Positions 20,831-44,788 of a DNA stretch of 64,000 nt are shown one piece after another. Numbering within the stretch: position 1 is the first letter of the stretch; the number at the start of each line of letters is the position of its first letter. The translations under genes were made by a program, and so were the position numbers. Source of the DNA: a virus. The stretch is taken from positions 1 to 64,000 of IMG/VR virus record IMGVR_UViG_3300032304_002326; one strand, given 5' to 3'. The notes under the pieces are model-generated. The model was not told the origin of the DNA and searched no databases. It saw only the letters and a list, made by a program, of their open reading frames with translations.

Positions 20831-20881
20831 ATGGGTAACTGGATTAAAAAACAAATGGTGAAATTACTTAAAAAGTTATAA
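20831..20881 (+). pseudogene. Stranded original 5' end of the 21669..22679 gene
   Basis: MGNWIKKQMVKLLKKL*; tggattaaaaaacaaatg at 20840-20857 recurs exactly at 21675-21692. Confidence 0.75.
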
Positions 20882-20914
20882 CATTATTATATATTTATAA
20901 TAAAAAATAATAGT

Positions 20915-21682
20915 ATGATTGATAGTAAAGAAACTGGTGTTTATAAAATAACTAATTTAAATAATAATAAAGTTTATATTGGTAGTTCTACTTCTGAGCG
21001 AGATGGGTTTAAAGATAGAATAAATACCCACATTAGATTGTTAAATAATAAAAAACACCCAAATAAACATTTACAAAGTTCTTGGGATAAATATAGTTAT
21101 AAATCTTTTAAATTTGAAATTTTAGAAATAATTAAAGGTAAAGATAAAATAATTGAAAGAGAACAATATTATATTGACTTATATGGGGTGATTAACCCAA
21201 ATATTGGTTATAATAAAGCACCAATAGCAAATAGTCAGTTAGGTTTTAAACATTCAGAAGAAAGTAAACGTAAAATGTCTAAAGCTGCTAAAAGTAGGTC
21301 TAAAGAAATTTCAGAAAGAATGAAAAAAATAATGACTGGTAAAAAAATGAGTGATGAAACAAAGGAAAAAATATCAAAAAAAATAAAAGGAATTAAAAGA
21401 AATTATGAGTTTAAAAATAAAATGAGTATTATTGCTAAAAATAGGGTAGTTAGTGATGATACTAAAAATAAAATCAGTAAAACAAAAACGGGTAAAATAT
21501 CTAAAAAAAGGAAAAAAGTTATACAATTAGATTTGTATGGTAATTTAATTAAAATATGGTCTTTTGCTGGTGAAGCTGAAAGTGAATTAAATATAACTAG
21601 AGGTAAAATAAGTGCAGTTTGTTTAAATAATAGAAAAACAGCTGGTGGATTTAAATGGAAATATAAAAATGAAATGGATTAA
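20915..21682 (+). mobile_element. Free-standing GIY-YIG homing endonuclease with NUMOD3/NUMOD1 repeats
   Basis: GVYKITN...VYIGSS...R...H...EREQYYID...GYN; HSEESKRKMS repeats; terminal ISAVCLNNRKTAGGFKWKY. Confidence 0.9.
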
Positions 21683-22679
21683 AAAACAAATGTTAAATCT
21701 AACATTAGCTATAAGTAATGTTGAAAAAAATGCATTAAATCAGGAAGGTATAGATGGCGGTATTGAAACTGGGAAATACCAGAGATTGAACCAAAATTCA
21801 TTGATGGATGCCCTACTTAGGGGGGAGATGAATGATGAGGTTGAAAAATTGCGTTGGAGAATATACAAAACTTCATCAGCTATTAAAAATTATGGAACCA
21901 AAGTGGTTGGTTATACAATTGACGGGCACCCAATAACTAAAATTACTTATGTTGGTGATGAAGAAAGGTTAGCTAAAATTAAAAAAGAACCTTCTGATGA
22001 ATACGAATTAATAATGGTGGTTGATAATACCAACGTTAGTGCTAGTGTTTTCTCATCATTAAATTTAGATATTGATGAATACGATGAACCTATCGACTCA
22101 AAAACAACAAACATAATTAATAAGGATGATGCACCAAAAGGTTTCACTATAGATGTAGATGATGAGATTAATAATGGTAGTAATATTGAGTTAGGTGATG
22201 ATGAAATAAAAACTATTGGGGAAGTTAAAGATAATAAAGTTGAATTAAATCTACCAATAAGTATAACTAGGGAACACAGGCCAAAATTTGAATTAGAAAA
22301 TTACACCAAAAAACTACATGTTAAGGAAATAAATGATAAAGAATTTTTATTAGAGTTTTTCATTTCAAAATACCCAAATCAGTTTGATAAAAAAAGTGAT
22401 TTTTTCTTATCGGATATTAAAAAATTGATATCACAACCAAAAAGATATAACTCAATTATCGATATAAATACAGTATCATTCGTTACCAATAATACAGTTG
22501 GTGTTCCAGACTTTTTAGAATTTGAATACAATGTTAAAAAATTTGACAAAATTGTTGAGTTCAATGAATTTTACGTTGTTAAATTTATTTCAGAAGTAAC
22601 TATTGAAGCTAAAAGTATTATTGATAAGTTCAGAAATGAAGAACTTGACGAAAAATATAAAAACAAAGAAAAAAGATAA
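21669..22679 (+). CDS. Hypothetical protein with start supplied by the endonuclease cassette
   Basis: ATG 21669 (MKWIKKQML) overlaps the end of the GIY-YIG gene. Confidence 0.65.
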   Translation: MKWIKKQMLNLTLAISNVEKNALNQEGIDGGIETGKYQRLNQNSLMDALLRGEMNDEVEKLRWRIYKTSSAIKNYGTKVVGYTIDGHPITKITYVGDEERLAKIKKEPSDEYELIMVVDNTNVSASVFSSLNLDIDEYDEPIDSKTTNIINKDDAPKGFTIDVDDEINNGSNIELGDDEIKTIGEVKDNKVELNLPISITREHRPKFELENYTKKLHVKEINDKEFLLEFFISKYPNQFDKKSDFFLSDIKKLISQPKRYNSIIDINTVSFVTNNTVGVPDFLEFEYNVKKFDKIVEFNEFYVVKFISEVTIEAKSIIDKFRNEELDEKYKNKEKR

Positions 22680-22684
22680 AATAT

Positions 22685-23524
22685 ATGGGGAGGCCGAGAA
22701 AAGTAACTGGTGAAACTTCAGTGCCACAAACTAGAAGTGTAAAACAACCACTAACTAAAGAGCAGTTGTTGCAAAATATTAGATTATCAATTAAGTGTAA
22801 AAATGAGACTCAAAAAAAATTAATACACACAATAAAAAATAATGATGTTACAATATGTACTGGTCCAGCTGGTACTGGTAAAACGTTTTTATCTTGTTAT
22901 GAATCTATTAATCAACTTAAAAATAATAATTTAATTAATAAAATCGTGATAGTTAAATCAGTTACAACATTAAAAAATGAAGAAATAGGATTTTTAAAAG
23001 GTTCATTAGAAGAAAAAATGGAACCATTTGTATATTCATTTATTAAAAATTTTGAAAAAATAATTGGATTAGACTTAACTAATAAATTAAAGGATGAAAA
23101 TATTATTGAAGTGTTACCAATTGCATACATGAGAGGTATAAATATTGATAATGCTGTGGTTATAATAGACGAAGTTCAAAACATATCAATAGATAATATT
23201 AGAACTATATTAACTAGGTTAGGAGAAAATAGTAAAATGATATTATTAGGTGATATTAACCAAATAGATATGAAATATAAAAAAGACAGTGCTCTAGAAT
23301 TTTTAATTAATAATTTTAAAAACACTTCAAATATTGGACTTATTGAATTCAATAATAGTGAAATTATAAGACACCCATTAATTATAAAAATAGAAGAAAT
23401 ATTTAATAATTACGATAAATCAAATACTCAAAATAAAGTTAAAGTTATCAATAATAAACCAGTTATAATTAGAAAAAAAATTAGCTTATTAAAGTTATTA
23501 TTTAATAAAATATTCGGTAGATAA
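22685..23524 (+). CDS. phoH: PhoH-family ATPase
   Basis: GPAGTGKT, GFLKG, AYMRG, IIDEVQN, TRLGENSKMILLGDINQID, RHPL. Confidence 0.92.
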   Translation: MGRPRKVTGETSVPQTRSVKQPLTKEQLLQNIRLSIKCKNETQKKLIHTIKNNDVTICTGPAGTGKTFLSCYESINQLKNNNLINKIVIVKSVTTLKNEEIGFLKGSLEEKMEPFVYSFIKNFEKIIGLDLTNKLKDENIIEVLPIAYMRGINIDNAVVIIDEVQNISIDNIRTILTRLGENSKMILLGDINQIDMKYKKDSALEFLINNFKNTSNIGLIEFNNSEIIRHPLIIKIEEIFNNYDKSNTQNKVKVINNKPVIIRKKISLLKLLFNKIFGR

Positions 23525-24331
23525 ATTTAATAAACCTAATCTATATAATTTTTGATAGGTAGGGTTATCATTTTCCCTAAATTCTTTTTTATTTTTATAT
23601 TTTGATGCTATTTTATATAAGTCTTCAATAGAAATTATATTAGAATATATATCACCAATAATGATATTATTAATATCATCCTTATTTATTTGTTTTTTTA
23701 AAAATTTATTTATAACTGGTAAATTATTAATAATTTGTTCTTTTATATCCAACTCATATTTACGACTATGTTCATTAATAATAATTAGCAATATATTTTT
23801 TTTAAAACATAAATCACACTTAAATGAATTATCATTATGTTGGTGCCAACCCTTACCATTATATTCAAAAGCTATTTTTAAGTCATCAACATAAATATCT
23901 AACTCATATGGTTTAATTATTTTCCTTGTATTGTATAAAACATCAGATTTAAATAATTTAACAATTATATCTTTTAAAATTAATTGTGGTATACTAAATG
24001 ATTTTGAAATCATATGTGAACATATGTCATTCAATATACCTTTTCTTTGTGCTGAAGAATAAGCTGAAGCATCATATTTTTTAAATTCAGACCTAGAGTT
24101 ATATTTTTTAGCAATTTCTGCTAAATTATCATAAGATAAATCACGACCAACTAATTTATTTCGCTTACCAATTAAATATGATTTAAACTCCTTACTTTTT
24201 TTCAAACCTAATCTATTAGCTTTTGATTCAAGTGATTTTTTAGATACATTTAAAATGTTACTTATTTCTAAATTTTCAGTATTTGGGTATAATTTAATAA
24301 GTTCATTAGTTAATTTTATAGACCAACTCAT
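23498..24331 (-). mobile_element. Free-standing Vsr/DUF559-like PD-(D/E)xK endonuclease, convergent on phoH
   Basis: ELDIYVDDLKIAFEYNGKGWH; repeated IAxKYxxxxEF helical units; own TATTTAT motif (24345-24351); 27-nt 3' overlap with phoH. Confidence 0.75.
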
Positions 24332-24437
24332 ATATTCTTTAAATATAAATATCCAATATACTCAAAAAAGGTAAAAATATTTTTATTTAAACTTTATTTA
24401 TTTATTTATTTTATTATCATTAAATAAAAATAAATAG

Positions 24438-25049
24438 ATGGCACGCATAGGTATTAGTATTAACGAAGTTTTAAGGGATACGTTATCCCAAATGGATTAT
24501 ACTTACAGTAAGTATATATCAGGTGAGGAATCTAAAATTACAAAAGATGAAATTACATCATTTAATTTAGAAGACCATTTTACGTTCCAATCGAAAAAAG
24601 ATTTAAACAGATTCTTATATGATGAGGCTAGTTTAGAAATCTTTGGACATGCGGACCAAATGATTGAAAATTTAATGACTAAATTTAATATGTTCTTAGT
24701 CGACATTGAGGAAGAAGAAGAGCATACAATCGAATTAGTTAGTAGAGAATACTTAAAAAGTATTCCATCAACATTATTCTTCCTATCAAAATTAGGTTGT
24801 AGAGCAGCAAATATTAGATTTGTTAAACAATATGATGAAGAATGGGGTGATGTTGATGTATTAATTACAGCAAACCCAATATCACTAAAAAACAAACCAA
24901 GCGATAAGATTTCGGTAAAAATAAATGCACCTTACAACAGTGATTGTCAAGGTGATTTTGAATTGGATTCAATTTTAGATTTTATCGAAGATGAAGCTTT
25001 AAGAACTAAAATTTTAAACACAAAAATAACAACACAAGAACAATTATAA
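24438..25049 (+). CDS. HAD-fold 5'(3')-nucleotidase-like protein (degenerate motif I)
   Basis: RIGISINEVLRD start; KINAPYN end. Confidence 0.55.
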   Translation: MARIGISINEVLRDTLSQMDYTYSKYISGEESKITKDEITSFNLEDHFTFQSKKDLNRFLYDEASLEIFGHADQMIENLMTKFNMFLVDIEEEEEHTIELVSREYLKSIPSTLFFLSKLGCRAANIRFVKQYDEEWGDVDVLITANPISLKNKPSDKISVKINAPYNSDCQGDFELDSILDFIEDEALRTKILNTKITTQEQL

Positions 25050-25050
25050 A

Positions 25051-25413
25051 ATGGAAGATATTATATTAGAATTTGGTGGCGTAGCTTATTATTTAGATTT
25101 TGATGGGATACAAAATATATTAAAATCCGATGAGGATTTAGAATCTGGTGAAGTAATTGAAACTGACACCAAAACAACCAATATTAATGGTGGGGTTGAA
25201 AAAGTTGAAATAACCACAAGACAATACCATAAAGGTAGAGAAATCGATATATCAAAATATGAAACATATAGAACTTTACTTGAAATATTACTAACACTAC
25301 AAGATGATGGTGATGATTCATTAGGTACTGAAAGAGCACTTAGTAGCGCACCATTACCATTTAAAATAGCATTTAATACTTTAGTAAAATACGGTGTACT
25401 AAAGGAATTATAA
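25051..25413 (+). CDS. Hypothetical protein
   Basis: 120-aa ORF in operon. Confidence 0.6.
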   Translation: MEDIILEFGGVAYYLDFDGIQNILKSDEDLESGEVIETDTKTTNINGGVEKVEITTRQYHKGREIDISKYETYRTLLEILLTLQDDGDDSLGTERALSSAPLPFKIAFNTLVKYGVLKEL

Positions 25414-25434
25414 TAACAAATAAAAAAAACAGAT

Positions 25435-26571
25435 ATGTCAGAAAACGTAAACAAAGTAAATGAAGAACAAGTTAATGCTGTAATTGAAAAATTGGAATCT
25501 AAAGATTTCGGCATTTATTTTTTCACATTAGACACAAAGGGTAATCCAGTAGCTGGTATTGCAAACATTTATGAACATGTAAAAGTTTTAAACCAATTAG
25601 GGTATAGAGCTTATATTTTACATGAGAAAAATGATTATAAAAAATTCGGTGACGAAGATGAAAACGGATTAGGTGATTGGTTAGGTGAAGAATATGCTAA
25701 TTTACCACACATGTCAATTGAATCTGGTGCATTAAATGTTGGTCCACAAGACTTTTTAATTATACCAGAAGCATTCTCAAGTGTAATGCAACAAAAAGAA
25801 GTTAGGTCTTTACCATGTAAAAAAATTGTATTCTCACAAAGTCATGAATACATTTTTGAATTATTACCATTAGGTAGAAGATGGACCGATTTTGGATTCA
25901 ACGATGTTATTACAACATCAAAAAAACAAGGTGAATACCTTAAAACATTATTCCCAAGTATTAAAACACATGTTGTACCAGTTGCAATCTCAAGTTACTT
26001 CAAAGCGTCAAACAAACCTAAGTTACCAATCGTAACTATTCACACTAGAAATCAAAGTGACGTTTCTAAAATTACAAAAGCATTTTATTTACAATACCCA
26101 ATCTACAAATGGTTAACATTTAAAGAATTAAGAGGTTTGTCTAAAGTACAATTTGCTGATGAACTATCTAAATCTTGTTTAGCTATTTGGGTTGACGATG
26201 TTGCTGGATTTGGTACATTCCCATTAGAAGCTATTGAGTGTGACACCCCAGTAATTGGTAAAATACCTAATATGGTTCCAGAATGGATGGAAGAATTAGA
26301 TTCAGATGGTAATTCAATTATCAAATACAATGGGTTATGGACTAATAGTACATTAAATATTCCAGAATTAATCTCAACATATATGAAAGTTTGGTTAGAG
26401 GATTCAGTTCCACAAGAACTTTTAGATGGTATGGCTGAAACAAAAGGTGTTTACAGTGAGGAAAATCAATCTAAAAAAATAGAAGAAGTTTATAGTTCAC
26501 TAGTTCAATCTAGAACTGATGAATTTAAAAACATAATCGATTCATTAAAAACTGAATCAACAATTAAATAA
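25435..26571 (+). CDS. GT-B glycosyltransferase
   Basis: GIANIYEHV, IIPE, GFGTFPLEAIECDTPVIG. Confidence 0.75.
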   Translation: MSENVNKVNEEQVNAVIEKLESKDFGIYFFTLDTKGNPVAGIANIYEHVKVLNQLGYRAYILHEKNDYKKFGDEDENGLGDWLGEEYANLPHMSIESGALNVGPQDFLIIPEAFSSVMQQKEVRSLPCKKIVFSQSHEYIFELLPLGRRWTDFGFNDVITTSKKQGEYLKTLFPSIKTHVVPVAISSYFKASNKPKLPIVTIHTRNQSDVSKITKAFYLQYPIYKWLTFKELRGLSKVQFADELSKSCLAIWVDDVAGFGTFPLEAIECDTPVIGKIPNMVPEWMEELDSDGNSIIKYNGLWTNSTLNIPELISTYMKVWLEDSVPQELLDGMAETKGVYSEENQSKKIEEVYSSLVQSRTDEFKNIIDSLKTESTIK

Positions 26572-26581
26572 TTTTTAAATT

Positions 26582-26629
26582 ATGAATAATATAACAGTAA
26601 TTATACCAAGATTTTTAGTTAGTGAATAG
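26582..26629 (+). pseudogene. Stranded original 5' end of the GT2 gene 27519..28310
   Basis: MNNITVIIPRFLVSE*; gtaattatacca at 26597-26608 recurs at 27543-27554 (ISVIIP). Confidence 0.7.
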
Positions 26630-26667
26630 TTTTACATTAGATTTACCATATTTATAAATAAAAATTT

Positions 26668-27510
26668 ATGATAATATATAAAACAACAAATTTAATTAAT
26701 GGTAAAATTTATATAGGTAAAGATGTTAAAAATAACCCAAATTATTATGGTTCTGGTAAAATATTAAAACAAGCTATAAAAAAATATGGTAAAGAAAATT
26801 TTAAAAAAGAAATATTACTTGAGTGTTTTAATAAAAAAGAATTAGAATTGGAGGAAATTAAACACATAACCAAATATTCATCAAATAACCCTAAAATCGG
26901 ATATAATGTAACTAATGGTGGGTCTGGTGGTGTAACAAAAAGAATAAAAATATACCAGTATAATAAAAATGGTGAATTTATAAAAGAATGGGAGAGTAGT
27001 GAAGTTGCATCTAGAGAATTAAATATTGATTCAAGTGCTATTAGAAAAGTTTGTAAAGGTATTTTAAAAAGTTGTGGTGGATTTATTTGGTTAGAATATA
27101 AAAAAAATAATGTAATCTATAAAACAAATAAAGAAAAAAATATATTACAATATGATATGTGTGGTAATTTCATAAAAGAATGGGTATCAATTAAAGATGC
27201 TGAAAATTATTTAAAAATAAAACCATATAGTGGTAATATTGGTTCAGTTTTAGATAAACCAAATAGGTCATCACATGGTTATATTTGGTTAACAAAATGT
27301 GATAAAATAAAAAATAAAATAAAACAATATGAACATAACTTATCAAGAAAGGTGAACCAATTAAATGATACGCATGATATTATTAAAACCTGGGAATCAA
27401 TTACTGATATATGTAAAAATTTAAAAATAAAACAAAGTACATTAATAAAATACCTTAAATTAGATAAAAAATTAGGTGGTTATTATTGGGAATATAATAA
27501 TAAAAAATAA
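26668..27510 (+). mobile_element. Free-standing GIY-YIG (Seg-like) endonuclease with three NUMOD1-like repeats
   Basis: IIYKTTNLINGKIYIGK...YYGSG...GYN; three QYxxxGxFIKEWxS...GYxW-type repeats. Confidence 0.9.
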
Positions 27511-27518
27511 TAAATAAA

Positions 27519-28310
27519 ATGAAAAAAAGAAATTTAATAAGTGTAATTATACCATTACACGAAGTACAAGAAGGAACCAATGGATTATATAAAAATGCAA
27601 TTCAAAGTGTTATTGACCAAGTTGTAAAACCATCAAATGTGTTAGTTGTAACACCAATAGGTAGTGAAGCAACTAAATTTGCAAATGACTTTGATTATGG
27701 TACTATAAAAGATTTAGTTAAAGTGATTGAAAATGATGGTAAAACGGATTTTGCATCACAAATTAATTATGGTGTTTCAAAATGTGAAACAACGTGGTTT
27801 AGTATTTTAGAATTTGATGATGAATATTCTAAAATTTGGTTTAAAAATGTGGAAACATATATTGAAGCTTATTCAGATGTTGATATTTTTATGCCTATCA
27901 TAGTTGACGTTGATGAATTTGGTTCATTTATAGGGTTTACAAATGAAGCAGTTTGGGCCAATAGTTTTTCAGAAGAACTAGGTCTTTTAGATAAAGATGC
28001 ATTACTTTCTTACCAAAACTTTAATATCGATGGTATTGTAATGAAAAAAGATATCTATGAATCATACGGTGGGTTTAAATCAAACATGCAGTTAACATTT
28101 ATTTATGAATTCTTATTAAGAATGACATATAAATCTGCTAAAGTTATGACAATCCCTAAATTTGGTTATAAACACGTAAACCAAAGAGTTGGTTCATTAT
28201 TCCATAGTTATAAATTAAATATGAATCCAGTTGAAGCGAACTGGTGGTTAAATAAAGCTAAATCTGAGTTCTACCATGAGCATGACAGAGAATTGAGCTA
28301 TGCTGAATAA
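27519..28310 (+). CDS. GT2 glycosyltransferase
   Basis: ISVIIP, INYGV, LEFDD. Confidence 0.75.
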   Translation: MKKRNLISVIIPLHEVQEGTNGLYKNAIQSVIDQVVKPSNVLVVTPIGSEATKFANDFDYGTIKDLVKVIENDGKTDFASQINYGVSKCETTWFSILEFDDEYSKIWFKNVETYIEAYSDVDIFMPIIVDVDEFGSFIGFTNEAVWANSFSEELGLLDKDALLSYQNFNIDGIVMKKDIYESYGGFKSNMQLTFIYEFLLRMTYKSAKVMTIPKFGYKHVNQRVGSLFHSYKLNMNPVEANWWLNKAKSEFYHEHDRELSYAE

Positions 28311-28320
28311 AATTTAAATA

Positions 28321-29070
28321 ATGGGCACACAACGAGGACGAAAAAGAACAAATGATTTATATTTCGGTCCAGACGAAGAGGCTGCTGTTATTAGATTTTT
28401 AGAATGTAATGATGATATAGAAAGGAATGCAATCTACAATGAATGGTTAAGAGGACCATTTGATAAAATGATTGAATCGATAATCAGAAGGTATAAATTA
28501 TATAGAAAAGGGTTTTCGTTTGAGGATTTACACTCAGACACCCTATCCTTCTTGATAACAAAAGCAGATAAATTTGAAAAAGATTCTGGCAAGAAAGCAT
28601 ATTCTTACTATGGAACAATTTGTAAACACTACATACTTGGGTTACTAATCAAAGATGATAGTAATGTAAAACAACTATATTCGTATGAAGATTTAAGTCA
28701 AGATTATTTTGACGATAGAGATGATTTACAATATGAGATTGATGATAAAGATTTTACTTTAGATAAATTTATAGTTAAATTAACGAGTGGTATTAAACTT
28801 GAAATTGATAACAATGAAACGTTACCAATTAAAAAAAGATTGAATGATAATGAAATAAAGGTTGGTTACGCACTTATCGATATTTTAGAAAATTGGGAAC
28901 AAACACTAGATGTAATGAATGGTGGGTCAAAATTCAATAAAAATTCAGTTTTGGAAACCATGCGAAATTACACCAATTTATCAACAAAAGACATAAGGTC
29001 GTCAATGAAAAGGTATAAAGATATATATTCTATATTAAAAATAGATGGGTTAGATAACGGATTTGAATAA
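28321..29070 (+). CDS. Phage sigma factor (T4 gp55-like)
   Basis: DKF...KKAYSYYGTICKHY, resembling sigma region 2 of gp55-like proteins. Confidence 0.65.
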   Translation: MGTQRGRKRTNDLYFGPDEEAAVIRFLECNDDIERNAIYNEWLRGPFDKMIESIIRRYKLYRKGFSFEDLHSDTLSFLITKADKFEKDSGKKAYSYYGTICKHYILGLLIKDDSNVKQLYSYEDLSQDYFDDRDDLQYEIDDKDFTLDKFIVKLTSGIKLEIDNNETLPIKKRLNDNEIKVGYALIDILENWEQTLDVMNGGSKFNKNSVLETMRNYTNLSTKDIRSSMKRYKDIYSILKIDGLDNGFE

Positions 29071-29083
29071 AAATCCGTTTTTT
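29054..29083 (+). terminator. Intrinsic terminator overlapping the sigma stop codon
   Basis: aacggattt-gaata-aaaatccgtt followed by a T run. Confidence 0.5.
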
Positions 29084-29124
29084 ACGTATTTATAGTATAT
29101 AACAATAACTAAAATAATTCATGT

Positions 29125-29508
29125 ATGGCTAGGAAAAAGAAACAAGAAGTCAAAATAAATAGTGTTGACAGTCTTGAAGGATTATGTCAGGAAGCATATA
29201 ATGATGCATGTGCGCAAATAAATGATGCACAAAGAACAATAAACGAAATGGTTAATTCAGCAAATCCAGAAGATGTTGATGATTTAACCAAAATAGCTAA
29301 AGGTAAAGTCGATGCATTAAAGATTAAAGATTCAGCAATTAAAATAAAACTTGAAATTGCTAAATTACAAAATGATATTATTAAAAACAATGGTGATGCT
29401 GATGCGGCCATTAAAGATAGAAGCAATGGTACAGCATCATTAGATGATTTTTCTAAAGTTAGAGAAATGATTAAAAATGGTCAAAATAATAATCCAGAAA
29501 ACGAATAA
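29125..29508 (+). CDS. Hypothetical coiled-coil protein
   Basis: 127-aa ORF after TATTTAT at 29087. Confidence 0.6.
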   Translation: MARKKKQEVKINSVDSLEGLCQEAYNDACAQINDAQRTINEMVNSANPEDVDDLTKIAKGKVDALKIKDSAIKIKLEIAKLQNDIIKNNGDADAAIKDRSNGTASLDDFSKVREMIKNGQNNNPENE

Positions 29509-29511
29509 GAT

Positions 29512-31095: not shown

Positions 31096-31107
31096 AATAT
31101 AAAAATT

Positions 31108-34530: not shown

Positions 34531-34578
34531 TTTTTAAATACATCTTTACAAATTTATATTTTTTACTATATAATATAG

Positions 34579-34602: not shown

Positions 34603-34624
34603 ATTTTAAAAATATAGGATTATT

Positions 34625-37036: not shown

Positions 37037-37150
37037 ATAATATTTATATATAAATATTTAATTATTTGAAAAAGAATAGATATTTTAATTTTAATATTAT
37101 TTAATTTAAATACATCTTTACAAATTTATATTTTTAATTATATTTATTAT

Positions 37151-37215
37151 TATAGTTAACTCCGTATTGGTTTCGAGTCAAATTTGACTTTAGAGTTGTT
37201 TAGGCAACAAAGAAA
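37151..37215 (+). promoter_or_regulatory. Structured 5' UTR whose first 12 nt are complementary to the 3' UTR
   Basis: tatagttaactc (37151-37162) vs gagttaactata (39265-39276); local hairpins agtcaa/ttgact and ttgtt/aacaa. Confidence 0.5.
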
Positions 37216-37252
37216 TTGGTACATTAATAACAAAAATTAAAAAGTTAAAAAA

Positions 37253-38065
37253 ATGAAAATTAGTTTAAACAATGAGGTTTCTACACCTCAAGCATTTATT
37301 GCTGTTAATAAAAGTAGAATTAAACAATATGATAAGTCTGGTGACACACCAACTTACTACCTACAAAAAGGTCAAGAATTCCAATTAGAATTATTTAATC
37401 CAACCAATGGAACCATTTTAGCTAAGATTTTCTTAAATGGAAATGCTATATCACAAGGTGGACTCGTTTTAAGACCAGGAGAGCGCATTTTTCTAGATAG
37501 ATATATCGATGTAGCCAAAAAGTTTTTATTCGACACCTACGAGGTTGAAAATACGTCTGAGGTTAAAAAAGCTATTGAAGACAATGGTGATTTTAAAGTT
37601 GAATTTTACAGAGAGTTCGTATTTAATAACTATGGTGGTTATTTAAACTTAAATAATAATACCACAGTAACCACATATAATACAAATTTAACTAATTATA
37701 GTGATGTAAATACATATGATATTAGATGTAATTCTTTAAATGATTTTAATTCATCATTTACAAACACATCAATTAATCAAAATACAACACCAGAAGGTCC
37801 AAACCGAAGACAATTAAAATCAAAAAAAACAAAATCAATTGAAACTGGTAGAGTTGAACAAGGTTCATCATCTAATCAAAAATTACAAACAGTAAATAAG
37901 AATTGGGAATACTCCCCATTTCATACTATTGAATATAAAATGTTACCATTATCACAAAAGATAAACACAATTGAAGATATTAATATAAAAAGATATTGCA
38001 CCAATTGTGGTTCCAAATTAAAAGTAGAGTTTAAATATTGTCCATTATGTGCAACTAAAATTTAA
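37253..38065 (+). CDS. Hypothetical protein with C-terminal double zinc ribbon (replaced C-terminus)
   Basis: Ends YCTNCGSKLKVEFKYCPLCATKI. Confidence 0.7.
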   Translation: MKISLNNEVSTPQAFIAVNKSRIKQYDKSGDTPTYYLQKGQEFQLELFNPTNGTILAKIFLNGNAISQGGLVLRPGERIFLDRYIDVAKKFLFDTYEVENTSEVKKAIEDNGDFKVEFYREFVFNNYGGYLNLNNNTTVTTYNTNLTNYSDVNTYDIRCNSLNDFNSSFTNTSINQNTTPEGPNRRQLKSKKTKSIETGRVEQGSSSNQKLQTVNKNWEYSPFHTIEYKMLPLSQKINTIEDINIKRYCTNCGSKLKVEFKYCPLCATKI

Positions 38066-39135
38066 TTTAAAAATTGGTTCCATGATTCCCAACCATTATA
38101 TTTATAAACATAATCTGGTCTTTTAGGAATATATGATGGTAGATTTTTAGTTAACGTTCTCCAAATAGATTCCGATTTAATATCACAATTTTTATTAACC
38201 CATTCCTTACTATCTTTATAAGATAAAAAATGGGTTATTTTTTTCTTCCCAATATATTTAATATTTTTTGGTAAATCATTACCAAAAAAATCATTATATG
38301 AAATCCATTCATTTTTATAAACATTAATTGGGTTTCTAGGTAAACCTAAATTTTTATTTTCTAAATACCAATTTGTGTATTCTGATTTAGTTGTTAATTT
38401 TAAATCTTTAATTATTAATTTAGCTTCAGAATAATTTATTAATTTAATTTTATTTTTTTTTATTATTAATTTTTTTTTATTAATTTTTGGTTTAGTATTT
38501 AAAAAAGAATACCAAGATTCCCAACCTTTACCTTTATAATATTGAGCTGGATTATATGGCATTTTATTTTTTCTAAAAATACGATATTCTTCTATATTTT
38601 TAATTTTCTCTTTAATAACTATTTCTTTTAATTCATTGTAACTTAAAAAACTATTATTATTAAAAAAATCAGTCCAGTTCTTCCAATCTCTATTTTTATA
38701 TACTGAATCTGGTCTTTTAGGAAAACATTCGGGTAATTCACCTAATTTTATCCATTTACGCCATTTTTTTTCTGAATTAATGTTAGGTATATTATTTAAC
38801 ACCCATTCTTTCATTTCTACTAATGTTGATTCATATTTAGAATAACTACTACCTTCACCACCTTTACTTAAATTAGTTAAATTAGGTATTTGCCCTATCC
38901 AATATTTTTCTCGTTCTACCCAATTATCTTCATTACATTCTTCTATAATATGTATTTTTAATTCTTCATTATTATTTAAAACTTTACGAATCCAATTATT
39001 CTTATGTGTTATTATACCTCGTTTAGCTTCACAAATGTGGTCATTTTTCCTAATTATTGGTCTATATGATTTACCAATATATCTTATTATATTATCATAC
39101 CCTGATAATCCATAAATATAAATTTTATCACTCAT
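38062..39135 (-). mobile_element. GIY-YIG endonuclease with PxxPxxxYKxxGWxSW repeats
   Basis: IYIYGL...IRYIGKS...R...H...EREKYWI...LTN; four repeats. Start taken at ATG 39135; TATTTAT at 39148-39154. Confidence 0.8.
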
Positions 39136-39192
39136 GATGTTTTTATTATAAATATACAAAAATTTATAAAAATCACATTTTAGATAAAACTT

Positions 39193-39252
39193 TGTGGTTC
39201 TAAATTAGGTAAGGGTGATAAATTTTGTGCTAACTGCGGCACAAAAGCTTAA
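39193..39252 (+). pseudogene. Stranded original 3' end of 37253..38065
   Basis: CGSKLGKGDKFCANCGTKA*, same length and Cys spacing as the in-gene CGSKLKVEFKYCPLCATKI* (38006-38065). Confidence 0.85.
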
Positions 39253-39277
39253 ATAAAAATAACTGAGTTAACTATAT

Positions 39278-39302
39278 AAGGGGAGTTTTTACTCCCTTTT
39301 TT
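39278..39302 (+). terminator. Intrinsic terminator
   Basis: aaggggagt-tttt-actccctt followed by a T run. Confidence 0.75.
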
Positions 39303-39377
39303 ATTTAAATAAGTTTTTTTATTAAAAAAAAATTGTTATTTTAAATATTATTTGTATATTTGTAAAAAAATAAAAAT

Positions 39378-39551
39378 ATGGAAAATACTAACATGTTATC
39401 TAGCAATAGTGCTATTGCTTCTGAAGTAATCAAATTGGAAAAGAAATATCCTAATAATATGGATTTAGGTTTTGCAATTAGAAAATTGTTACTTGAAAAT
39501 CGTGAAAAATACGATTTATTATTAAAAAGTATTGAAAACAAAAAAGGCTAG
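39378..39551 (+). CDS. Small hypothetical protein (57 aa)
   Basis: MENTNML...KYPNNMDLGFAIRKLL...KKG*; preceded by TATATTTG at 39355. Confidence 0.55.
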   Translation: MENTNMLSSNSAIASEVIKLEKKYPNNMDLGFAIRKLLLENREKYDLLLKSIENKKG

Positions 39552-39568
39552 ATAAACTCTAGCCTTTT
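39539..39568. terminator. Bidirectional terminator (capsid terminator, downstream copy)
   Basis: aaaaggctaga-taaac-tctagcctttt; near-identical copy at ~40464-40493. Confidence 0.8.
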
Positions 39569-39586
39569 ATATGAATTAGATTTTTA

Positions 39587-39655
39587 TTATCTTAATTCGT
39601 TAATGTTAAATGTTGGAACACCATCAACTTTTACGTGACCGTAGAATCTGTTGTT
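39587..39655 (-). pseudogene. Stranded copy of the last 22 codons of the major capsid gene
   Basis: NNRFYGHVKVDGVPTFNINELR*, protein-identical to 40512-40580 with 12 synonymous differences. Confidence 0.92.
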
Positions 39656-39666
39656 AAAACTTGCTT

Positions 39667-40440
39667 TTATAATAATTTATACATAAAAATATCATCTTCA
39701 TCATCTGTTGTTCTATATTTAGAAAAACCATACTTACTGTAAATTTGATAAAGTATATCTGAGTCTATTTCCGAATCATCATCAACCCTCAAAAATAATG
39801 ATTTATATCCTTTATTTTTGCCGAAATCATATAACCAATTCATAGTTTCTGTCATATAATTTTTACCTCTAAATTCTGGCAAAATTTTAATGTCAACAAT
39901 AGCTAAAGGATTTGGTAAATTAACATCAATCCAATAATATTCTTTCCTCGCTGGCGATAATATTATATAACCCACTTTTTCACCATTAACAATAATATCA
40001 TTATATTCATCAGTTGATGGGTTTTCTATATTTATTGATTCATTTAATGAATCAGAACCAGTTCCTTTATATATTAATTCAATTGAATTTGGTGGGATAT
40101 TTTCAAAAGTGATTATTCGTTTATCTTCTAAATCAAAATTAGGGTCAATATACCATTTGTTTTTAAGTTTGGTCGTATCTATTTTGTATATATCATCATC
40201 ATAGGTTGAATCCCACCAATCTTTTTTATTATCACTATTAACCGCAAATATGACTTTACCTTCAATAGGTGTATTAGATAACCAAGTTTCACTCTTTCCC
40301 TTTGGAATTAAACCTTCTTTTGATATGACATCCCTAAAATACGAATTTGATGTATGATACACATACTTATTTGGGATTATTTCTTTTAATTTACGATTAT
40401 TTAACGATTCTCTCAGTAACTTTTGTATTAATGTTTTCAT
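39667..40440 (-). CDS. Two-domain protein: Tpt1/KptA-like ADP-ribosyltransferase fold + GNAT acetyltransferase, with capsid-targeting-like leader
   Basis: MKTLIQKLLRE|S; YVYHTS...ISKEGLIP...ENIPPNSI; linker SLNE|S; IKILPEFRGKNY...YSKYGF. Confidence 0.65.
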   Translation of the reverse strand: MKTLIQKLLRESLNNRKLKEIIPNKYVYHTSNSYFRDVISKEGLIPKGKSETWLSNTPIEGKVIFAVNSDNKKDWWDSTYDDDIYKIDTTKLKNKWYIDPNFDLEDKRIITFENIPPNSIELIYKGTGSDSLNESINIENPSTDEYNDIIVNGEKVGYIILSPARKEYYWIDVNLPNPLAIVDIKILPEFRGKNYMTETMNWLYDFGKNKGYKSLFLRVDDDSEIDSDILYQIYSKYGFSKYRTTDDEDDIFMYKLL

Positions 40441-40463
40441 ACCTATAAATATCTATATAAAAC

Positions 40464-40493
40464 AAAAAAGGCTAGATTAACTTCTAGCCTTTT
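40464..40493 (-). terminator. Terminator of the major capsid gene (upstream copy)
   Basis: aaaaggctaga-ttaact-tctagcctttt. Confidence 0.8.
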
Positions 40494-40511
40494 ATATGAA
40501 TTAGATTTTTA

Positions 40512-42299
40512 TTATCTTAATTCGTTGATATTGAATGTAGGTACACCGTCCACTTTTACATGACCATAGAACCTATTATTCACAACTTTCTTCGCATATC
40601 TAGTCATGATACCTTTAACTGGTGCGAAGTTGAATGGATTGTACATTGTAGGTGTAAGTTGCATTGGCACGTATGGTGCGTAGATGTAACCTGTATCTAA
40701 CAATGATTTTCCTTTATGACCGATAATCGCTGAGTAGAAAGGTGCATATGGGTCACGGTACACTTGGTAACGTCCGCTTAATGAACCGATTCTTTCAATA
40801 CCCATGTTGTATTGGTCTTGCTCTGGGTTAGCATCACTTACGTGGAAGTATTCTAAATCATCCATGATTGCAGATATTTCAGAAGATACTACGATAAAGT
40901 TAGCACCACCTCTAAGAGTTGATTTGTGAATTTGAGCTGAAATTTGGTTAATTCTAGTAATGAAAGTTTGATTCCACTCTTTTTGTGTATATGGTGATGC
41001 AGCAGAAGAAGCTTTTCTCCATCCGTTGTAATCCCATCTTAATTGCCATGCAGCAGCTTTTCTTAAGTCTCTTAAGATTTCACGGTCAATTTCAGCAGCA
41101 ACTTGCTCAGAAAGCATTGCAGTTAATTCAGCTTCAGCATCGATGTTGTGGAATGCACTAACGTCTTGCGCTAACTCTGGAGACCATGTAGCTCTTAATT
41201 TTCTTTCTTCTACAGAAACAACAACTTCATCCAATTTGAATGATACTTCACCCATTTCAGTTTCTAACTCTAATGAATCGTAACGACCCCAAGCGATAAA
41301 GAAATCAGCAGCAGTTTCAGTTGTACCAGTAGTACCAATATAACCATCATAAGTTGATGTAGTACCAACTACTGGGTGTGTTAAATCCATTTCAACATAA
41401 AGAAAACCTTTAGCATCACAGATATCTTTATAATCTACGATACCTCTACCATATTTTTGAGTTACTAATCTAAAAGGAACTTGAGAACCTTGAGCGATAA
41501 TTACATTACCATCTGAGTCTAATAAATCTACGTTAGAAACAATGTTTAAAGATGCTAAGAAAGCTTCTGAATCCATTTCATTTCCGTCTGGACCTGTTAA
41601 TCTACCAGCATTAACTGAAGAGAAACCAGAGATAGCCATAATAGCGTTTCTTAAAGTTCCGTCAGTTGCTAATGGTAAAGCACCAAAGTTAGCAGCAACA
41701 GTAAATTGACCATTAGTACCTAATGTTTGTAAAGCACCAAAACCAGCAACGATATTTAATGTACCTTTAGAATTATCAAATAATCCGTCATTGTAGAAAA
41801 TATCATATAAGTTTTTACCTTCAAATGGAGTCATAACACAGTTACCTAATGTACTAACACATGATGGTAATTGGTCACCCATTGAAGTGTGTGCAGAATA
41901 TACAGAGTTTTCACTACCGTAAATATAATCGTTAGTTCCAGGATTTCCTAAACCGTCAACTCTAGATGATGTAACTGGTACGAAGAAGAACAATTTACCG
42001 ATTGGCATGTTCATAGCTTGTACAGATACTACATCATTAGCTAATAATTTAGAGAATACTCTTCTTACGATTGGGAAAACTACAGTTTCAAAAGAACCTG
42101 ATGACGTAGAGTCAGTAGCTTCTGTTAAAATTGAAGATGCTTGGTTTTCATATAACTGAGCAACGTTTTCTTTAACGTGGCCTTTAAGACCTTCTAAGAA
42201 TCCTAATGATTCCCATTTTGATTGGGTTTGTCTACGGATTTCCTTCATGTGGTTTAATCCGATGTTCCCAACTTGTCCTGAATTTAAAAATTGTGACAT
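40512..42299 (-). CDS. Major capsid protein (T4 gp23-like)
   Basis: PIVRRVF, VSVQAMNMPIG, RKLRATWSPELAQDVSAFHNIDAEAELTAMLSEQVAAEIDREI, GYIYAPYVP, GIMTRY. Confidence 0.95.
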   Translation of the reverse strand: MSQFLNSGQVGNIGLNHMKEIRRQTQSKWESLGFLEGLKGHVKENVAQLYENQASSILTEATDSTSSGSFETVVFPIVRRVFSKLLANDVVSVQAMNMPIGKLFFFVPVTSSRVDGLGNPGTNDYIYGSENSVYSAHTSMGDQLPSCVSTLGNCVMTPFEGKNLYDIFYNDGLFDNSKGTLNIVAGFGALQTLGTNGQFTVAANFGALPLATDGTLRNAIMAISGFSSVNAGRLTGPDGNEMDSEAFLASLNIVSNVDLLDSDGNVIIAQGSQVPFRLVTQKYGRGIVDYKDICDAKGFLYVEMDLTHPVVGTTSTYDGYIGTTGTTETAADFFIAWGRYDSLELETEMGEVSFKLDEVVVSVEERKLRATWSPELAQDVSAFHNIDAEAELTAMLSEQVAAEIDREILRDLRKAAAWQLRWDYNGWRKASSAASPYTQKEWNQTFITRINQISAQIHKSTLRGGANFIVVSSEISAIMDDLEYFHVSDANPEQDQYNMGIERIGSLSGRYQVYRDPYAPFYSAIIGHKGKSLLDTGYIYAPYVPMQLTPTMYNPFNFAPVKGIMTRYAKKVVNNRFYGHVKVDGVPTFNINELR

Positions 42300-42328
42300 A
42301 ATTTTTTATTTTTTTTGTTTTGTTATTA

Positions 42329-43717
42329 TTATCTTTTTTCGACTCTACTCATTAAGTCTTTTATTCTTTGAGTTTCTTTGTCGATGTATGCGGTAGACTC
42401 ATTTAATTGTTTTGACACACCGCTTGAAACGTCTTTATTTAATTTTCTATCGATTGATTCATTCATTGGTTTTCTAGAAGACAATTCATTAACAATCGTT
42501 TTGTATAACTTTTTTGATTCTTTAAGAGTTGAAACTTCTTCGTCAAATCTTTTTAAGATTGACTGTTTCTCATCTTTAGTTGTAGTTTGTTCCATAAATA
42601 ACTTAGTTACATAAGTTAAGTTAGAGTTAAACACAACTGTTTCTGCTAACATAGTTCTAAATGTTTTAAGAGCTTCTTTGTATTCTTCATTTCTACCTCT
42701 TAAATCTCTAGCTTCCGCTAACAATGTATTATATTTGTTTGCAACCTCATTGATTGTCATTGTTGGTTTTTTAGACTCGTTTTGTAACTTAGCATTTGTG
42801 TGTGATGTTGCAACTTTAGCAACTTTACCACCAACATATCTAGTTTCATCAACCATTTCTTCTTCTTCTTCAGTTTTCTTAACACCTGACATACCTTTAG
42901 GTAAATCAGTTGGTTGTGTTTCAGCGTATTCTTCCAAATCACCTTCAGACATAACCATGTCACCTTCAGCGTGAGCATATTTTACAGCATCATCATCGAA
43001 TCCACCATCTAAATTATCACCAGCCCAGTTATCTTTACTTGCATTACCAAGTGGGGCTTTTTTACCATCAATGTTTTCCATTTCTTCAAGTGCAATTTCA
43101 TACATAACCTCGTCAACTTCTTCTTCTTCACCACCAAATTCATTAGCACCAAATTCATCAGCACCAAATTCATCAGTACTAATTTCAGAACTATCAAGTT
43201 CAGATGTACCACCATTAGTTTTAATGATAAATTTTCCTGGTTCATTTACTGATAATTTAATATCACCAGTTTCATCGTCAACAACAACTTCGATTTCGCT
43301 ATCACCAGTTAACTCTTTGTAAACCTTGATAACGTCATCATCGGACGCTTGAGTCATATCTCTTACTTCTGTGTCTCCTCCAAGCGGTTCAGCGCTCATT
43401 CCCATATCGTCACCACCATTTAGGTCGTCACCTTCTTCTGAGTCATCAGATGTAAATTTAGAATCGTCAGCAACTTCTTCTGAGTCATCAGCTGCATCAT
43501 CAACAACTTCATCATCAACTGTTACATCAACATCTTCTGTTTCTTCATCAGCATCTTCTTCAACATAACCTTCTTCCAAAGATTCTTTCACTAGTCCGTC
43601 AATTTCTTCAATAGCTACACTACGAAGTATTTCTTTTGTGTTGGCGTTAAGTGCCTCTTGGATTCTCTTTGCATCCAAAAGAGCGCTTTCAATAATTGAT
43701 TTATTTTTTTCTGCCAT
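42329..43717 (-). CDS. Prohead core/scaffold protein (gp22-like)
   Basis: Very acidic with a coiled-coil C-terminus; lies between protease and capsid genes; many LxE sites. Confidence 0.75.
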   Translation of the reverse strand: MAEKNKSIIESALLDAKRIQEALNANTKEILRSVAIEEIDGLVKESLEEGYVEEDADEETEDVDVTVDDEVVDDAADDSEEVADDSKFTSDDSEEGDDLNGGDDMGMSAEPLGGDTEVRDMTQASDDDVIKVYKELTGDSEIEVVVDDETGDIKLSVNEPGKFIIKTNGGTSELDSSEISTDEFGADEFGANEFGGEEEEVDEVMYEIALEEMENIDGKKAPLGNASKDNWAGDNLDGGFDDDAVKYAHAEGDMVMSEGDLEEYAETQPTDLPKGMSGVKKTEEEEEMVDETRYVGGKVAKVATSHTNAKLQNESKKPTMTINEVANKYNTLLAEARDLRGRNEEYKEALKTFRTMLAETVVFNSNLTYVTKLFMEQTTTKDEKQSILKRFDEEVSTLKESKKLYKTIVNELSSRKPMNESIDRKLNKDVSSGVSKQLNESTAYIDKETQRIKDLMSRVEKR

Positions 43718-43824
43718 TTTTTAATGTTTTTTAAAATATTATTAAAGGGAAATACCCCTTACTTGTTTATAAATATGTTTATTTTATCAAAAAGCTAAAT
43801 TTTTAAAAAAAAATTGTTTTTTAA

Positions 43825-44526
43825 TTAATCTAATAAAAATTTATCTAAACCATCGATTAATGTATTTTTTTTATTTTCTACTGATTCAACAAATGGTCTA
43901 GCTTCCATTTTATCTTTAAACATCCATGAACCAGGTGTGCTAGGTGCGGTTACAACATCCCAACAAATAATTTCAAAATCCTCTTGAACTATGTGGTCAT
44001 CACCAACTTCCCTTAATGAACCAACACCTCTAGATGATACACCAATCATAATATTATTTCTTAAAAGATTGGCAACTTCATCACCTTTAGTTGATACAAT
44101 TCCATAATTAATATATCCTGGAGTCATTAATATTTCCATTTTACCCATTAATGTTTTACCTTCCCACCAAGTTTCAATTATATTGTGTGATACTCTATCA
44201 CCAGCAATAATTGAAGACTCTGGGTGGTCTAATTCACCAATAGCTCTTCTTTCTCTAATTAATTCTTGATATCTATCAACTTCTCTTTTTAAAATAGATT
44301 CTGGGTATATTCTACCATTTCTATTTTTTACACCATATTTCTGTAAGACTACATAAACCACTAATGGTTCGTGAACTGATGGATGTATACCAGATTCTAA
44401 TTTTTTCATCTCAGTTACGAATGGTTTATTTCTTTTATCATCTGGTGAAATATAACCAGCATCAGATTCAATCATAATCATTCTTTCACCAGTAATATTG
44501 GTTTTATTTATCTTGTAATCACTCAT
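43825..44526 (-). CDS. Prohead maturation protease (T4 gp21-like)
   Basis: KNRNGRIYP, GELDHP, VSH, GVSSRGVGS, DVVTAPS. Confidence 0.93.
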   Translation of the reverse strand: MSDYKINKTNITGERMIMIESDAGYISPDDKRNKPFVTEMKKLESGIHPSVHEPLVVYVVLQKYGVKNRNGRIYPESILKREVDRYQELIRERRAIGELDHPESSIIAGDRVSHNIIETWWEGKTLMGKMEILMTPGYINYGIVSTKGDEVANLLRNNIMIGVSSRGVGSLREVGDDHIVQEDFEIICWDVVTAPSTPGSWMFKDKMEARPFVESVENKKNTLIDGLDKFLLD

Positions 44527-44527
44527 A

Positions 44528-44788
44528 TCAATTAATTTTTACCCATTTATAATTATAGTATGTCCTATTTTCTTTGTTACAAACATTAGATATACTACTT
44601 TGTTTTATTTTTAAAGTATTACTGTATTTAGATTTTCTAATATGTTCTTTAAACCTTACATCAATATTATTTGATTTACCAATATATCTAACTAAATTGG
44701 TTAATGGGTCAACTAACATATAAATGTAAACTACATTTAATTTATTTTCCACACTTTGACCAGCCTTTAATATTTTAATATCTGACAT
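44528..44788 (-). pseudogene. Internally deleted GIY-YIG endonuclease fused to the probable original protease N-terminus
   Basis: MSDIKILKAGQS (cf. protease MSDYKINK), then VYIYMLVDP...RYIGKS...RFKEH joined directly to a NUMOD1 end (ISNVCNKENRTYYNYKW); the catalytic Glu region is missing. Confidence 0.7.

Follow-up and report, generated by a model that had tools for sequence, protein, structure and literature searches.

Free-standing endonuclease genes between substitute and stranded gene ends in an uncultured freshwater T4-like phage

The first 64 kb (positions 1 to 64,000, hereafter the window) of the 78.6-kb IMG/VR record IMGVR_UViG_3300032304_002326 contain free-standing endonuclease genes that lie between two versions of the end of a phage gene, an in-use version joined to the gene body and a stranded version on the far side of the nuclease gene. 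The junctions between presence and absence of these inserts are exact, the stranded ends are native, the in-use ends are foreign, and nuclease and substitute end travel together. It is therefore very probable that free-standing nuclease cassettes replace gene ends by bringing substitute termini with them, the native end being left stranded. A preliminary description of this DNA had listed duplicated gene ends at five loci (loci 1 to 5), all of which exist as described when the DNA is read, and the PhoH locus (22685–24405) adds an end-replacement locus beyond those five. Empty alleles, i.e. relatives without the insert, carry the stranded and not the in-use terminus joined to the gene body at loci 1, 2, 3, 5 and PhoH, the outcome that the description had named as its test. 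Both gene ends are hit, the 5' end at loci 1, 2 and 5 and the 3' end at locus 3 and PhoH, and the protein termini are really altered, the in-use open reading frames (ORFs) being full length compared with their homologues.

The record (G+C content 25–33%, CheckV completeness about 23%) contains T4-type genes for the major capsid protein (Pfam Gp23, 4.5e-71), a gp21-type prohead protease (Peptidase_S77), the portal protein and PhoH. The closest capsid proteins in IMG/VR are at most 78% identical to that of the window. Near-identical stretches of the window were present in lake and freshwater metagenomes, and 20 freshwater or lake sequencing runs contained 17–95% of the words sampled from 37000–45000. 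The T4-type gene set together with these matches identifies the record as an uncultured freshwater T4-like phage.

Loci 1, 2 and PhoH and their near-isogenic empty alleles

L157, a lake-metagenome contig near-isogenic with the window (L082 is an IMG/VR fragment of L157), was 97–99% identical to it over most of 20670–29554 and lacked three inserts, those of loci 1, 2 and PhoH. At the exact sites of these three loci L157, L158 and L082 were without the inserts, and shifts in identity between the window and L157 coincided with the nuclease genes. The features of locus 1 are:

20831–20862, + strand: stranded native 5' end of a 336-aa gene, MGNWIKKQM (32 nt), continuing as a 16-codon mini-ORF to 20881
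20915–21682, + strand: GIY-YIG homing endonuclease gene, 255 aa, with NUMOD3 motifs (Pfam GIY-YIG 1.2e-11, NUMOD3 4.4e-9; phrog_314 'homing endonuclease' 1.3e-33)
21669–21900, + strand: substitute foreign 5' part of about 75 codons, starting MKWIKKQM, of the in-use gene 21669–22679

The nuclease gene of locus 1 is missing from L157 and L158, in which MSNWIKKQM(V).. runs directly into the body of the 336-aa gene. The stranded copy matches the empty alleles through its 32 nt, and the native flank upstream of it is 97% identical to L157, whereas the in-use gene is about 75% identical to L157 over its first ~230 nt and 97–99% identical thereafter, indicating that about 75 foreign codons were brought by the cassette. 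The start was thus replaced, as described earlier, the replaced tract being about 75 codons and not 8. Although P0020, a protein encoded in a different assembly, has an overall identity of only 71%, its first 75 residues are those of the in-use gene of the window, and the shared stretch includes the read-through from the 3' end of the locus 1 nuclease; the junction was reproduced in the protein clusters P0001 (13 members) and P0020, and P0008 starts with MGNWIKKQMV. Stranded and in-use starts have an exact 18-nt repeat in common. When closer relatives of the 336-aa gene were sought in IMG/VR, L082 alone was found.

At locus 2 the invaded gene codes for a glycosyltransferase:

26582–26608, + strand: stranded native 5' end, 9 codons, MNNITVIIP (same 27 nt in the empty allele L082/L157)
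26668–27510, + strand: GIY-YIG (SegE-like) endonuclease gene with NUMOD1 repeats (Pfam NUMOD1 1.7e-13, SegE_GIY-YIG 1.3e-5; phrog_314 3.2e-24)
27519–27554, + strand: substitute 5' end, 12 codons, MKKRNLISVIIP, of the in-use glycosyltransferase gene 27519–28310

Relative to the empty allele the insert is exactly 26609–27554 (946 bp), which supplies a new start and 12 codons. In L082/L157 the 27 stranded nt (27 of 27 identical) are followed directly by the glycosyltransferase body, with flanks 96–98% identical. The peptide MKKRNLISVIIP does not occur in the empty allele, homology to L082 picks up again at 27537–27555, and an exact 12-nt repeat is found at the junctions.

The PhoH locus differs in having its nuclease gene antisense at the 3' end of the host gene:

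22685–23524, + strand: PhoH gene (Pfam PhoH 8.9e-59), its last ~40 codons (from ~23400) being the substitute 3' end
23498–24331, − strand: 277-aa endonuclease-like ORF (phrog_3339 'homing endonuclease' 1e-10, phrog_559 4.3e-7), overlapping the final 27 nt of PhoH
24362–24405, + strand: decayed stranded native PhoH 3' end (..KKVKIFLF..), aligning with the last codons and 3' untranslated region (UTR) of PhoH in L157/L158

The 277-aa ORF is missing from L157, L158 and L082, and PhoH ends in ..RKLKIF[LF]KRTFK and stop in the empty alleles L157/L158 as opposed to ..RKKISLLKLLFNKIFGR and stop in the window. The family of this ORF numbers at least 238 proteins, JGI having named two of them very-short-patch-repair endonuclease; the ORF itself had no match among PDB sequences and no significant similarity to the nuclease encoded at 60030–61202 (see below). 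PhoH itself is a three-way mosaic, L157-like (98%) to ~22868, L158-like (~95%) to ~23400 and then like neither.

Clade-matched stranded ends at the protease and zinc-ribbon genes

At locus 5 the nuclease gene is decayed and its start coincides with the displaced protease start:

44528–44788, − strand: decayed GIY-YIG ORF, 86 aa, starting MSDIKILK (Pfam GIY-YIG 4.6e-6), with an internal deletion of ~200 aa
44753–44788, − strand: stranded native protease start, the first 12 codons of the remnant, fused in frame (compare the relatives' protease starts)
43825–44526, − strand: prohead protease gene, starting MSDYKINK (Pfam Peptidase_S77 1.9e-24), directly downstream of the remnant
44467–44526, − strand: substitute 5' end of the protease gene, first ~20 codons, MSDYKINKTNITGERMIMIE ('KINK' type start)

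The remnant, which ends with a stop before the protease start, corresponds to residues 6–59 and 262–290 of its L033 homologue. Relatives without a homing endonuclease gene (HEG) start their protease with MSDIKI[IL]KPGQSGFGYLIEQDAGY or MDINYKDFRILKRGESGWGGLIEHDAGY, and the protease genes of the HEG-less L037, L005, L001 and L002 begin MSDIKI[IL]KPGQSG... The stranded 36 nt match L037 at 31 of 36 positions, compared with 23 of 36 for the in-use start. Full-length nuclease genes occupy the same protease site in L015, L017/L049 and L033, and each of these ORFs opens with the protease start native to its clade before running into the GIY-YIG motif: the first 18 residues of the L017 nuclease are exactly those with which the protease of L013, L003 and L022 starts, the start of the L033 nuclease resembles that of the sister L035, that of the window resembles L037, L005 and L001, and that of L015 resembles L002. 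One foreign protease start type (..YKINKTN..G..M.LIE) is present in all four HEG-bearing alleles, which are scattered among HEG-less relatives in the capsid tree (window, L015, L017/L049 and L033), and the locus is empty in most of 80 relatives. Clade-matched stranded starts combined with a single substitute type show that the stranded end goes with the host lineage, the substitute end with the nuclease. From the layout of the reading frames, expression of the protease-site nuclease is predicted to rely on the promoter and start codon of the protease gene itself. The two starts at locus 5 resemble each other weakly at the DNA level; the duplication was accepted because the N-terminus of the remnant is the native protease start. 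Chance similarity, considered in view of the low DNA identity and the different Ser codons, was ruled out by the relatives' protease starts.

Split tblastn matches showed inserts of ~1.1–1.4 kb at recurrent positions in the portal genes of relatives (L010, L012, L023, L028, L029, L035 and L036) and inserts of the same size in their protease genes after residue ~99 (L011/L012, L022/L023 and L026–L029). These inserts are probably introns or inteins, which would mean that several kinds of element invade the same set of genes.

Locus 3 lies at the 3' end of a zinc-ribbon protein gene:

38021–38065, + strand: substitute 3' end (..KVEFKYCPLCATKI and stop) of the zinc-ribbon protein gene 37253–38065, unlike the C-termini of 17 relatives
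38062–39159, − strand: GIY-YIG endonuclease gene, antisense, likely start ATG at 39135 (MSDKIYIYGL..), with three internal repeat modules
39193–39305, + strand: stranded native 3' end, frameless, CGSKLGKGDKFCANCGTKA, 19 codons plus stop (39193–39252), with 3'UTR and terminator, matching the relatives' ends

The in-use gene ends ..CGSKLKVEFKYCPLCATKI with its stop at 38065. All 17 relatives with the zinc-ribbon gene end in CG[AS]KLGKG[HD][KR]FC..CGTKA and stop, followed by a GAGTTAAC motif and a terminator, as in the stranded copy, and none of the 17 resembles the in-use end. These empty-allele relatives are more distant than the L157-type contig; in the best example, L003, the last 60 nt show 50 matches to the stranded and 37 to the in-use end. 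The nuclease had no Pfam or PHROG match and no relatives were found for it in a search of IMG/VR; it aligns with the GIY-YIG genes of L015, L017 and L033 and contains the IYIYG..RYIGKS motifs, and its repeat modules constitute families D5 and D10. The same design was seen at the 5' end of the zinc-ribbon gene in L011 and L012.

Upstream of the zinc-ribbon gene, a leader of ~100 nt (37150–37252; GTTAACTC.GTATTGG..TTTAGAGTTG..GGCAACAAAG..) is conserved at the nucleotide level in the relatives L009, L019 and L033, with only ~55% identity between the proteins. The leader, which had no match in Rfam, may be a structured 5'UTR.

Across these loci, Pfam GIY-YIG or SegE_GIY-YIG domains were found in 20915–21682, 26668–27510 and 44528–44788, while 38062–39159 was assigned by alignment and motifs. 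DNA-binding modules comprised NUMOD3 at locus 1, NUMOD1 and an I-HmuI NUMOD-like match (Pfam) at locus 2 and the three repeat modules at locus 3. No HNH or LAGLIDADG domain was found in the record. In line with the earlier statement that neither introns nor inteins are needed, Rfam at gathering thresholds gave no match in the 64-kb window, no intron being detected; the host ORFs are continuous, and no nuclease embedded in frame in an intein was found at the cassette loci, where the nuclease ORFs are separate and two are antisense. Intein blocks are confined to ClpC (58140–62635), the locus of the sixth nuclease gene of the record; the other five of the six use end replacement. The ClpC features are:

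58140–62635: ClpC-like ATPase split at GPTGVGK/C by a split intein, a 'fractured gene' layout
60030–61202: Vsr-like endonuclease gene, 390 aa, between the ClpC halves (split-intein locus)

The motif [CT]ATATTTAT lies 20–25 nt upstream of three nuclease starts and likewise upstream of the scaffold and protease genes. Overall it is not enriched (22 found, ~18 expected), the positions alone being suggestive, and its placement suggests late expression of the nucleases.

The capsid locus and inserts of non-nuclease genes

Locus 4 has the same geometry around a gene of another kind:

40459–40592, − strand: copy A, the in-use capsid 3' end with UTR and terminator (capsid gene 40512–42299, Pfam Gp23 4.5e-71)
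39667–40440, − strand: cargo, 257 aa, with an RNA 2'-phosphotransferase/ART-like N-domain and a GNAT domain (Pfam Acetyltransf_1 5.8e-7; phrog_5470 2.2e-4, phrog_3810 1.7e-5)
39535–39666, − strand: copy B, the stranded capsid 3' end (~24 codons, frame broken upstream) with UTR and terminator, from the A/B alignment

The two copies of ~133 nt flank the ART-GNAT ORF and reach ~78 nt into the capsid coding sequence. Over 69 coding nt they show 12 synonymous and no non-synonymous changes, differing at 12 of 23 third positions, and in the UTR and terminator the hairpin loop alone differs. Third-position identity to the 26 nearest relatives was 0.648 for the capsid body, 0.648 for the stranded copy B and 0.519 for the in-use copy A, and copy B was closer than copy A in 27 of 37 relatives; on both counts copy B behaves as the native end. 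The capsid/ART-GNAT locus may be a cassette that lost or never had a nuclease. Of the proposal that cassettes can carry non-nuclease cargo, the shared geometry and the native-like stranded copy stand, while there is no nuclease at locus 4 to do the carrying. A further claim, that essential genes are hit, applies to the gp21 (prohead protease) and gp23 (capsid) homologues, which are presumed essential by analogy with T4.

An ART-GNAT gene beside the capsid gene was seen in none of the relatives examined, and an exact-pattern search of IMG/VR for a B-type capsid end gave no match. The N-domain of the cargo alone is a separate gene in L195–L198. The cargo starts with MKTLIQKLLRES, which resembles the T4 capsid-targeting tag, a sequence we take to be MKTYQEFIAE, and the tag family is visible in L195–L198. 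A shared start tag (MK..I[KQ]KLLRE.. or MK.....YEEF[LI]NE) occurs on many unrelated late genes, including 39667–40440 and 34246–34530 in the window and genes of L195–L198, L010, L019, L033 and L035; this pattern suggests that the tag-bearing late genes form a set of packaged, injected proteins that would include the ART-GNAT protein.

The last ~480 nt of the capsid gene (40512–40925 region) are 81–88% identical at the nucleotide level to the 26 nearest relatives, the whole proteins being 68–78% identical, and over 69 nt copy B has 96% identity with L009 and L013.

A second insert looks like a non-nuclease insert with a duplicated regulatory target. The gene at 34625–37036 (− strand) codes for a fibre-like virion structural protein of 803 aa (phrog_1645) and has on either side a copy of a promoter-like direct repeat of 39 nt with 95% identity (TTTACA..N17..TATAAT-like; 34533–34571 and 37105–37143). 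It sits between the + strand genes 34246–34530 and 37253–38065, which are neighbours in L009, L019 and L033.

Proposed mechanism, alternatives and related systems

In the mechanism that we propose, an HEG would have been copied at five places to within a few dozen bases of the start or end of a phage gene, four of the nucleases being of the GIY-YIG type and the fifth, at PhoH, putatively of the Vsr-like endonuclease family. A cassette would consist of the nuclease gene, usually a late-promoter-like motif, and a substitute, foreign copy of the displaced gene end, the last of which would keep the host reading frame whole without RNA or protein splicing. The native end persists as a short fragment, stranded beyond the nuclease gene, and at the protease gene it would double as the start codon and first 12–18 residues of the nuclease. 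The nuclease would cut the empty allele of a co-infecting relative near the insertion point, and double-strand-break repair would copy the cassette, with homology provided on one side by the stranded end and its outer flank and on the other by the gene body; flanking tracts of variable length, ~75 codons at locus 1, would be co-converted. The occupied allele would be immune because the target is both split and recoded.

Several points weigh against this reading. L045 (3687) and L058 (7315) have the substitute 'KINK' protease start with neither a nuclease gene nor a stranded piece, so that the substitute-type start could be a natural allele and not just part of a cassette; these two could represent precise loss of the cassette or the source lineages of the substitute end. 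At locus 1, stranded and in-use copies are so similar over their first 27 nt that they cannot be told apart, and the matches to L158 (30 of 32 nt for the stranded, 27 of 32 for the in-use copy) discriminate weakly. The stranded PhoH end is decayed, matching weakly and with a deletion. At locus 4, the K in HVKVDG encoded by both copies occurs in 2 of the 120 closest capsid proteins (P0242, with 98% capsid identity, carries it), the UTR and terminator common to A and B differ in every relative examined, and the geometry is that of the cassettes with no nuclease domain in the cargo (Pfam, PHROG). The shared rare K and shared UTR/terminator, set against the differences at 12 of 23 third positions, imply an inconsistent history, and no single simple one could be reconstructed. 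The cleavage site, immunity and the formation of the first cassette are steps that we infer, the homing step is drawn by analogy with established homing biology (PMC2988022), and the window is a metagenome assembly.

Insertion of the Campbell type, with the stranded copy coming from the donor, was ruled out at loci 1, 2, 3 and 5, where the stranded ends are contiguous with native flanks. In another account the insert alone arrived and duplicated a few target bases, the in-use copy then diverging in situ. The short exact junction repeats (18 nt at locus 1, 12 nt at locus 2) and, at locus 4, the near-identical UTR/terminators and the rare K in both copies fit this course of events, yet it is very improbable given that the in-use ends are far more diverged than their surroundings (~75% against 97–99% at locus 1, a different peptide at loci 2, 3 and PhoH), that a single type of substitute protease start is found with the nuclease in four different clades and that P0020 has the substitute 75 residues in a different genetic background. 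Artefact or chance is more improbable still. Chimeras of mixed strains could be produced by an assembler in a metagenome assembly such as this record (25–30% G+C), and short K/N/I-rich peptides do match by chance in AT-rich DNA (a score of 38 was reached in 30 of 5816 tests with reversed-peptide controls), whereas the same architecture recurs in independent assemblies from other samples (L017/L049, L033, L015, L011/L012, L211, L222, L214, L223 and L266), P0001 and P0020 reproduce the locus 1 junction, a single run contains 95% of the sampled words of 37000–45000, and, at the junctions predicted, the agreement of the empty alleles with the stranded ends is exact.

For the two cargo-type inserts only (capsid/ART-GNAT and the fibre-like 34625–37036), nuclease-independent shuffling through repeated terminator or promoter modules was also considered. 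Arbiol et al. are said to have proposed in 2010 that promoter-stem-loop cassettes of T4-type phages shuffle in this way. Neither insert contains a nuclease gene according to Pfam and PHROG, the repeat around the fibre-like gene is promoter-like and separates genes adjacent in L009, L019 and L033, and the locus 4 repeat includes a whole terminator. This repeat, however, also extends ~78 nt into capsid coding sequence, with all 12 coding differences synonymous, which is the pattern of the nuclease cassettes, and copy B behaves as a native capsid end; shuffling is thus unlikely, if less so than the two preceding accounts.

End replacement by nuclease cassettes has its closest described counterpart in the mORF 'gene hybrids' of fungal mitochondria. 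In PMC3630166 (citing Paquin et al. 1994) these are reported from atp6 of Allomyces macrogynus and atp6, atp9, cox2 and nad3 of Glomus; they combine an endonuclease ORF with an inserted C-terminus of foreign origin and keep the native C*-terminus, the one more similar to relatives. Common to both systems are a nuclease ORF near a gene end with an in-phase foreign terminus, a native end kept beyond it and the lack of an intron or intein, and an in-phase substitute terminus with a retained native terminus was found at loci 1, 2, 3, 5 and PhoH. The mitochondrial cases presented there are organellar and C-terminal only (PMC3630166), whereas the cassettes described here reside in a phage and affect 5' as well as 3' ends. 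In addition, and unlike mORF, the nuclease can be antisense, one is fused to the start codon of the host gene, and five cassettes lie within 24 kb. The cassettes thus work like mORF without being members of that organellar group.

Free-standing Seg and Mob endonucleases undergo intronless homing in T4-type phages (PMC2988022; SegB, PMC2330249; mobE, PMC2790892), and the present loci resemble them in having free-standing GIY-YIG genes in a T4-like phage that are present or absent between relatives and in the co-conversion of flanking markers (PMC2988022). Nucleases also lie at boundaries of genetic exchange in ICP1 phages, a pattern with which the identity shifts relative to L157 agree (PMC10448857). 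The known Seg/Mob genes, by contrast, are intergenic or split a gene into two polypeptides (mobE/nrdA, mobA/gene 60), and a text search found no description of duplicated gene ends in the T4 mobile-element review (PMC2988022) or the ICP1 paper (PMC10448857). In 'fractured genes' a free-standing endonuclease gene lies between the halves of a split-intein gene, so that a nuclease inside an essential gene is likewise rescued without an intron (PMC2677866), ClpC (58140–62635) being an example in the window. There, rescue is by protein trans-splicing of two polypeptides, whereas the cassettes described here leave one ORF and discard the native end. Bonocora et al. reportedly described, in 2011, a mobA/gene 60 cassette of T4 with a 50-nt translational bypass, which PMC2988022 also mentions. 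In that case too, an accessory sequence accompanying the nuclease is said to keep the invaded gene functional and to destroy the target site, the accessory being a ribosomal hop element in a split gene and not a replacement gene end. A full-text literature search whose coverage excluded most subscription journals found no phage case of the end-replacing layout. What is new is the combination of both gene ends, sense and antisense nucleases, the in-frame host start codon, five loci in 24 kb and near-isogenic empty alleles.

Cassettes of this kind would offer a third route, besides introns and inteins, by which a selfish nuclease can reside in essential phage genes without harm. They would explain orphan mini-ORFs, odd N-terminal extensions of endonucleases and sharp mosaic boundaries, all of which mislead gene callers and phylogenies. 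Beyond mere hitch-hiking, homing would alter the termini of capsid-assembly and other proteins, so that conserved proteins would owe some of their variation to selfish elements. A hint that useful cargo may be delivered in this arrangement as well comes from the capsid locus. The matching empty alleles make cleavage and homing experiments easy to design. A wider view, which we regard as possible though doubtful, is that end-replacing cassettes are a general engine of phage evolution that rewrites the first or last 10–75 residues of essential virion and replication proteins, takes over the host promoter and start codon to express the nuclease, and by the same geometry moves non-nuclease cargo such as the capsid-tagged ART-GNAT effector to the ends of essential genes.

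The suggestion that a locus at 6.2 kb is a further case was not confirmed, as no stranded duplicate was seen at 6172–6400. This region contains a C-terminal endonuclease remnant (..GYNCIVIWETDY..) after a terminator and then a glycosyltransferase start (MTPDSRKKTKVLVVPSDRSGVG and stop), which needs a frame change to join the body from 6388. The 63-nt repeat D9 (44766 and 50975, 6209 nt apart) was rejected as a candidate, being a shared promoter-like region.

When gene termini were compared with the DNA flanking them in the window and 199 loci, 39 matches reached a score of at least 45, as opposed to 1 in reversed-peptide controls; many of the 39 are tandem paralogues with similar N-termini and not stranded ends. 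Locus 1 scored 40, locus 3 scored 42 and locus 4 scored 98. The decisive evidence is the empty alleles, not these statistics. The GIY-YIG loci of two cultured phages, Yersinia fHe-Yen9-01 and Rhizobium RHph_I1_18 (intergenic, Seg-like), showed no duplicated ends; that of Aeromonas Aes012 lies among tRNA genes and was left out of the duplicate test. Among 80 independent IMG/VR loci centred on GIY-YIG genes, 12 flank tests reached a score of at least 30 (3 in controls) and 6 reached at least 35 (0 in controls), and the end-replacement layout is found in about 10–15% of the independent GIY-YIG loci sampled. End replacement is thus the dominant mode of invasion, as had been proposed, within the record (five of six nuclease genes) and not in this wider sample or at the two cultured-phage loci. 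Examples among the 80 loci are L211, L222, L214, L223, L266 and L261; a single target gene (..PITRINKFFSEEDF) accounts for hits in at least six contigs, and 3'-end cases are represented by L266 and L261/L263.

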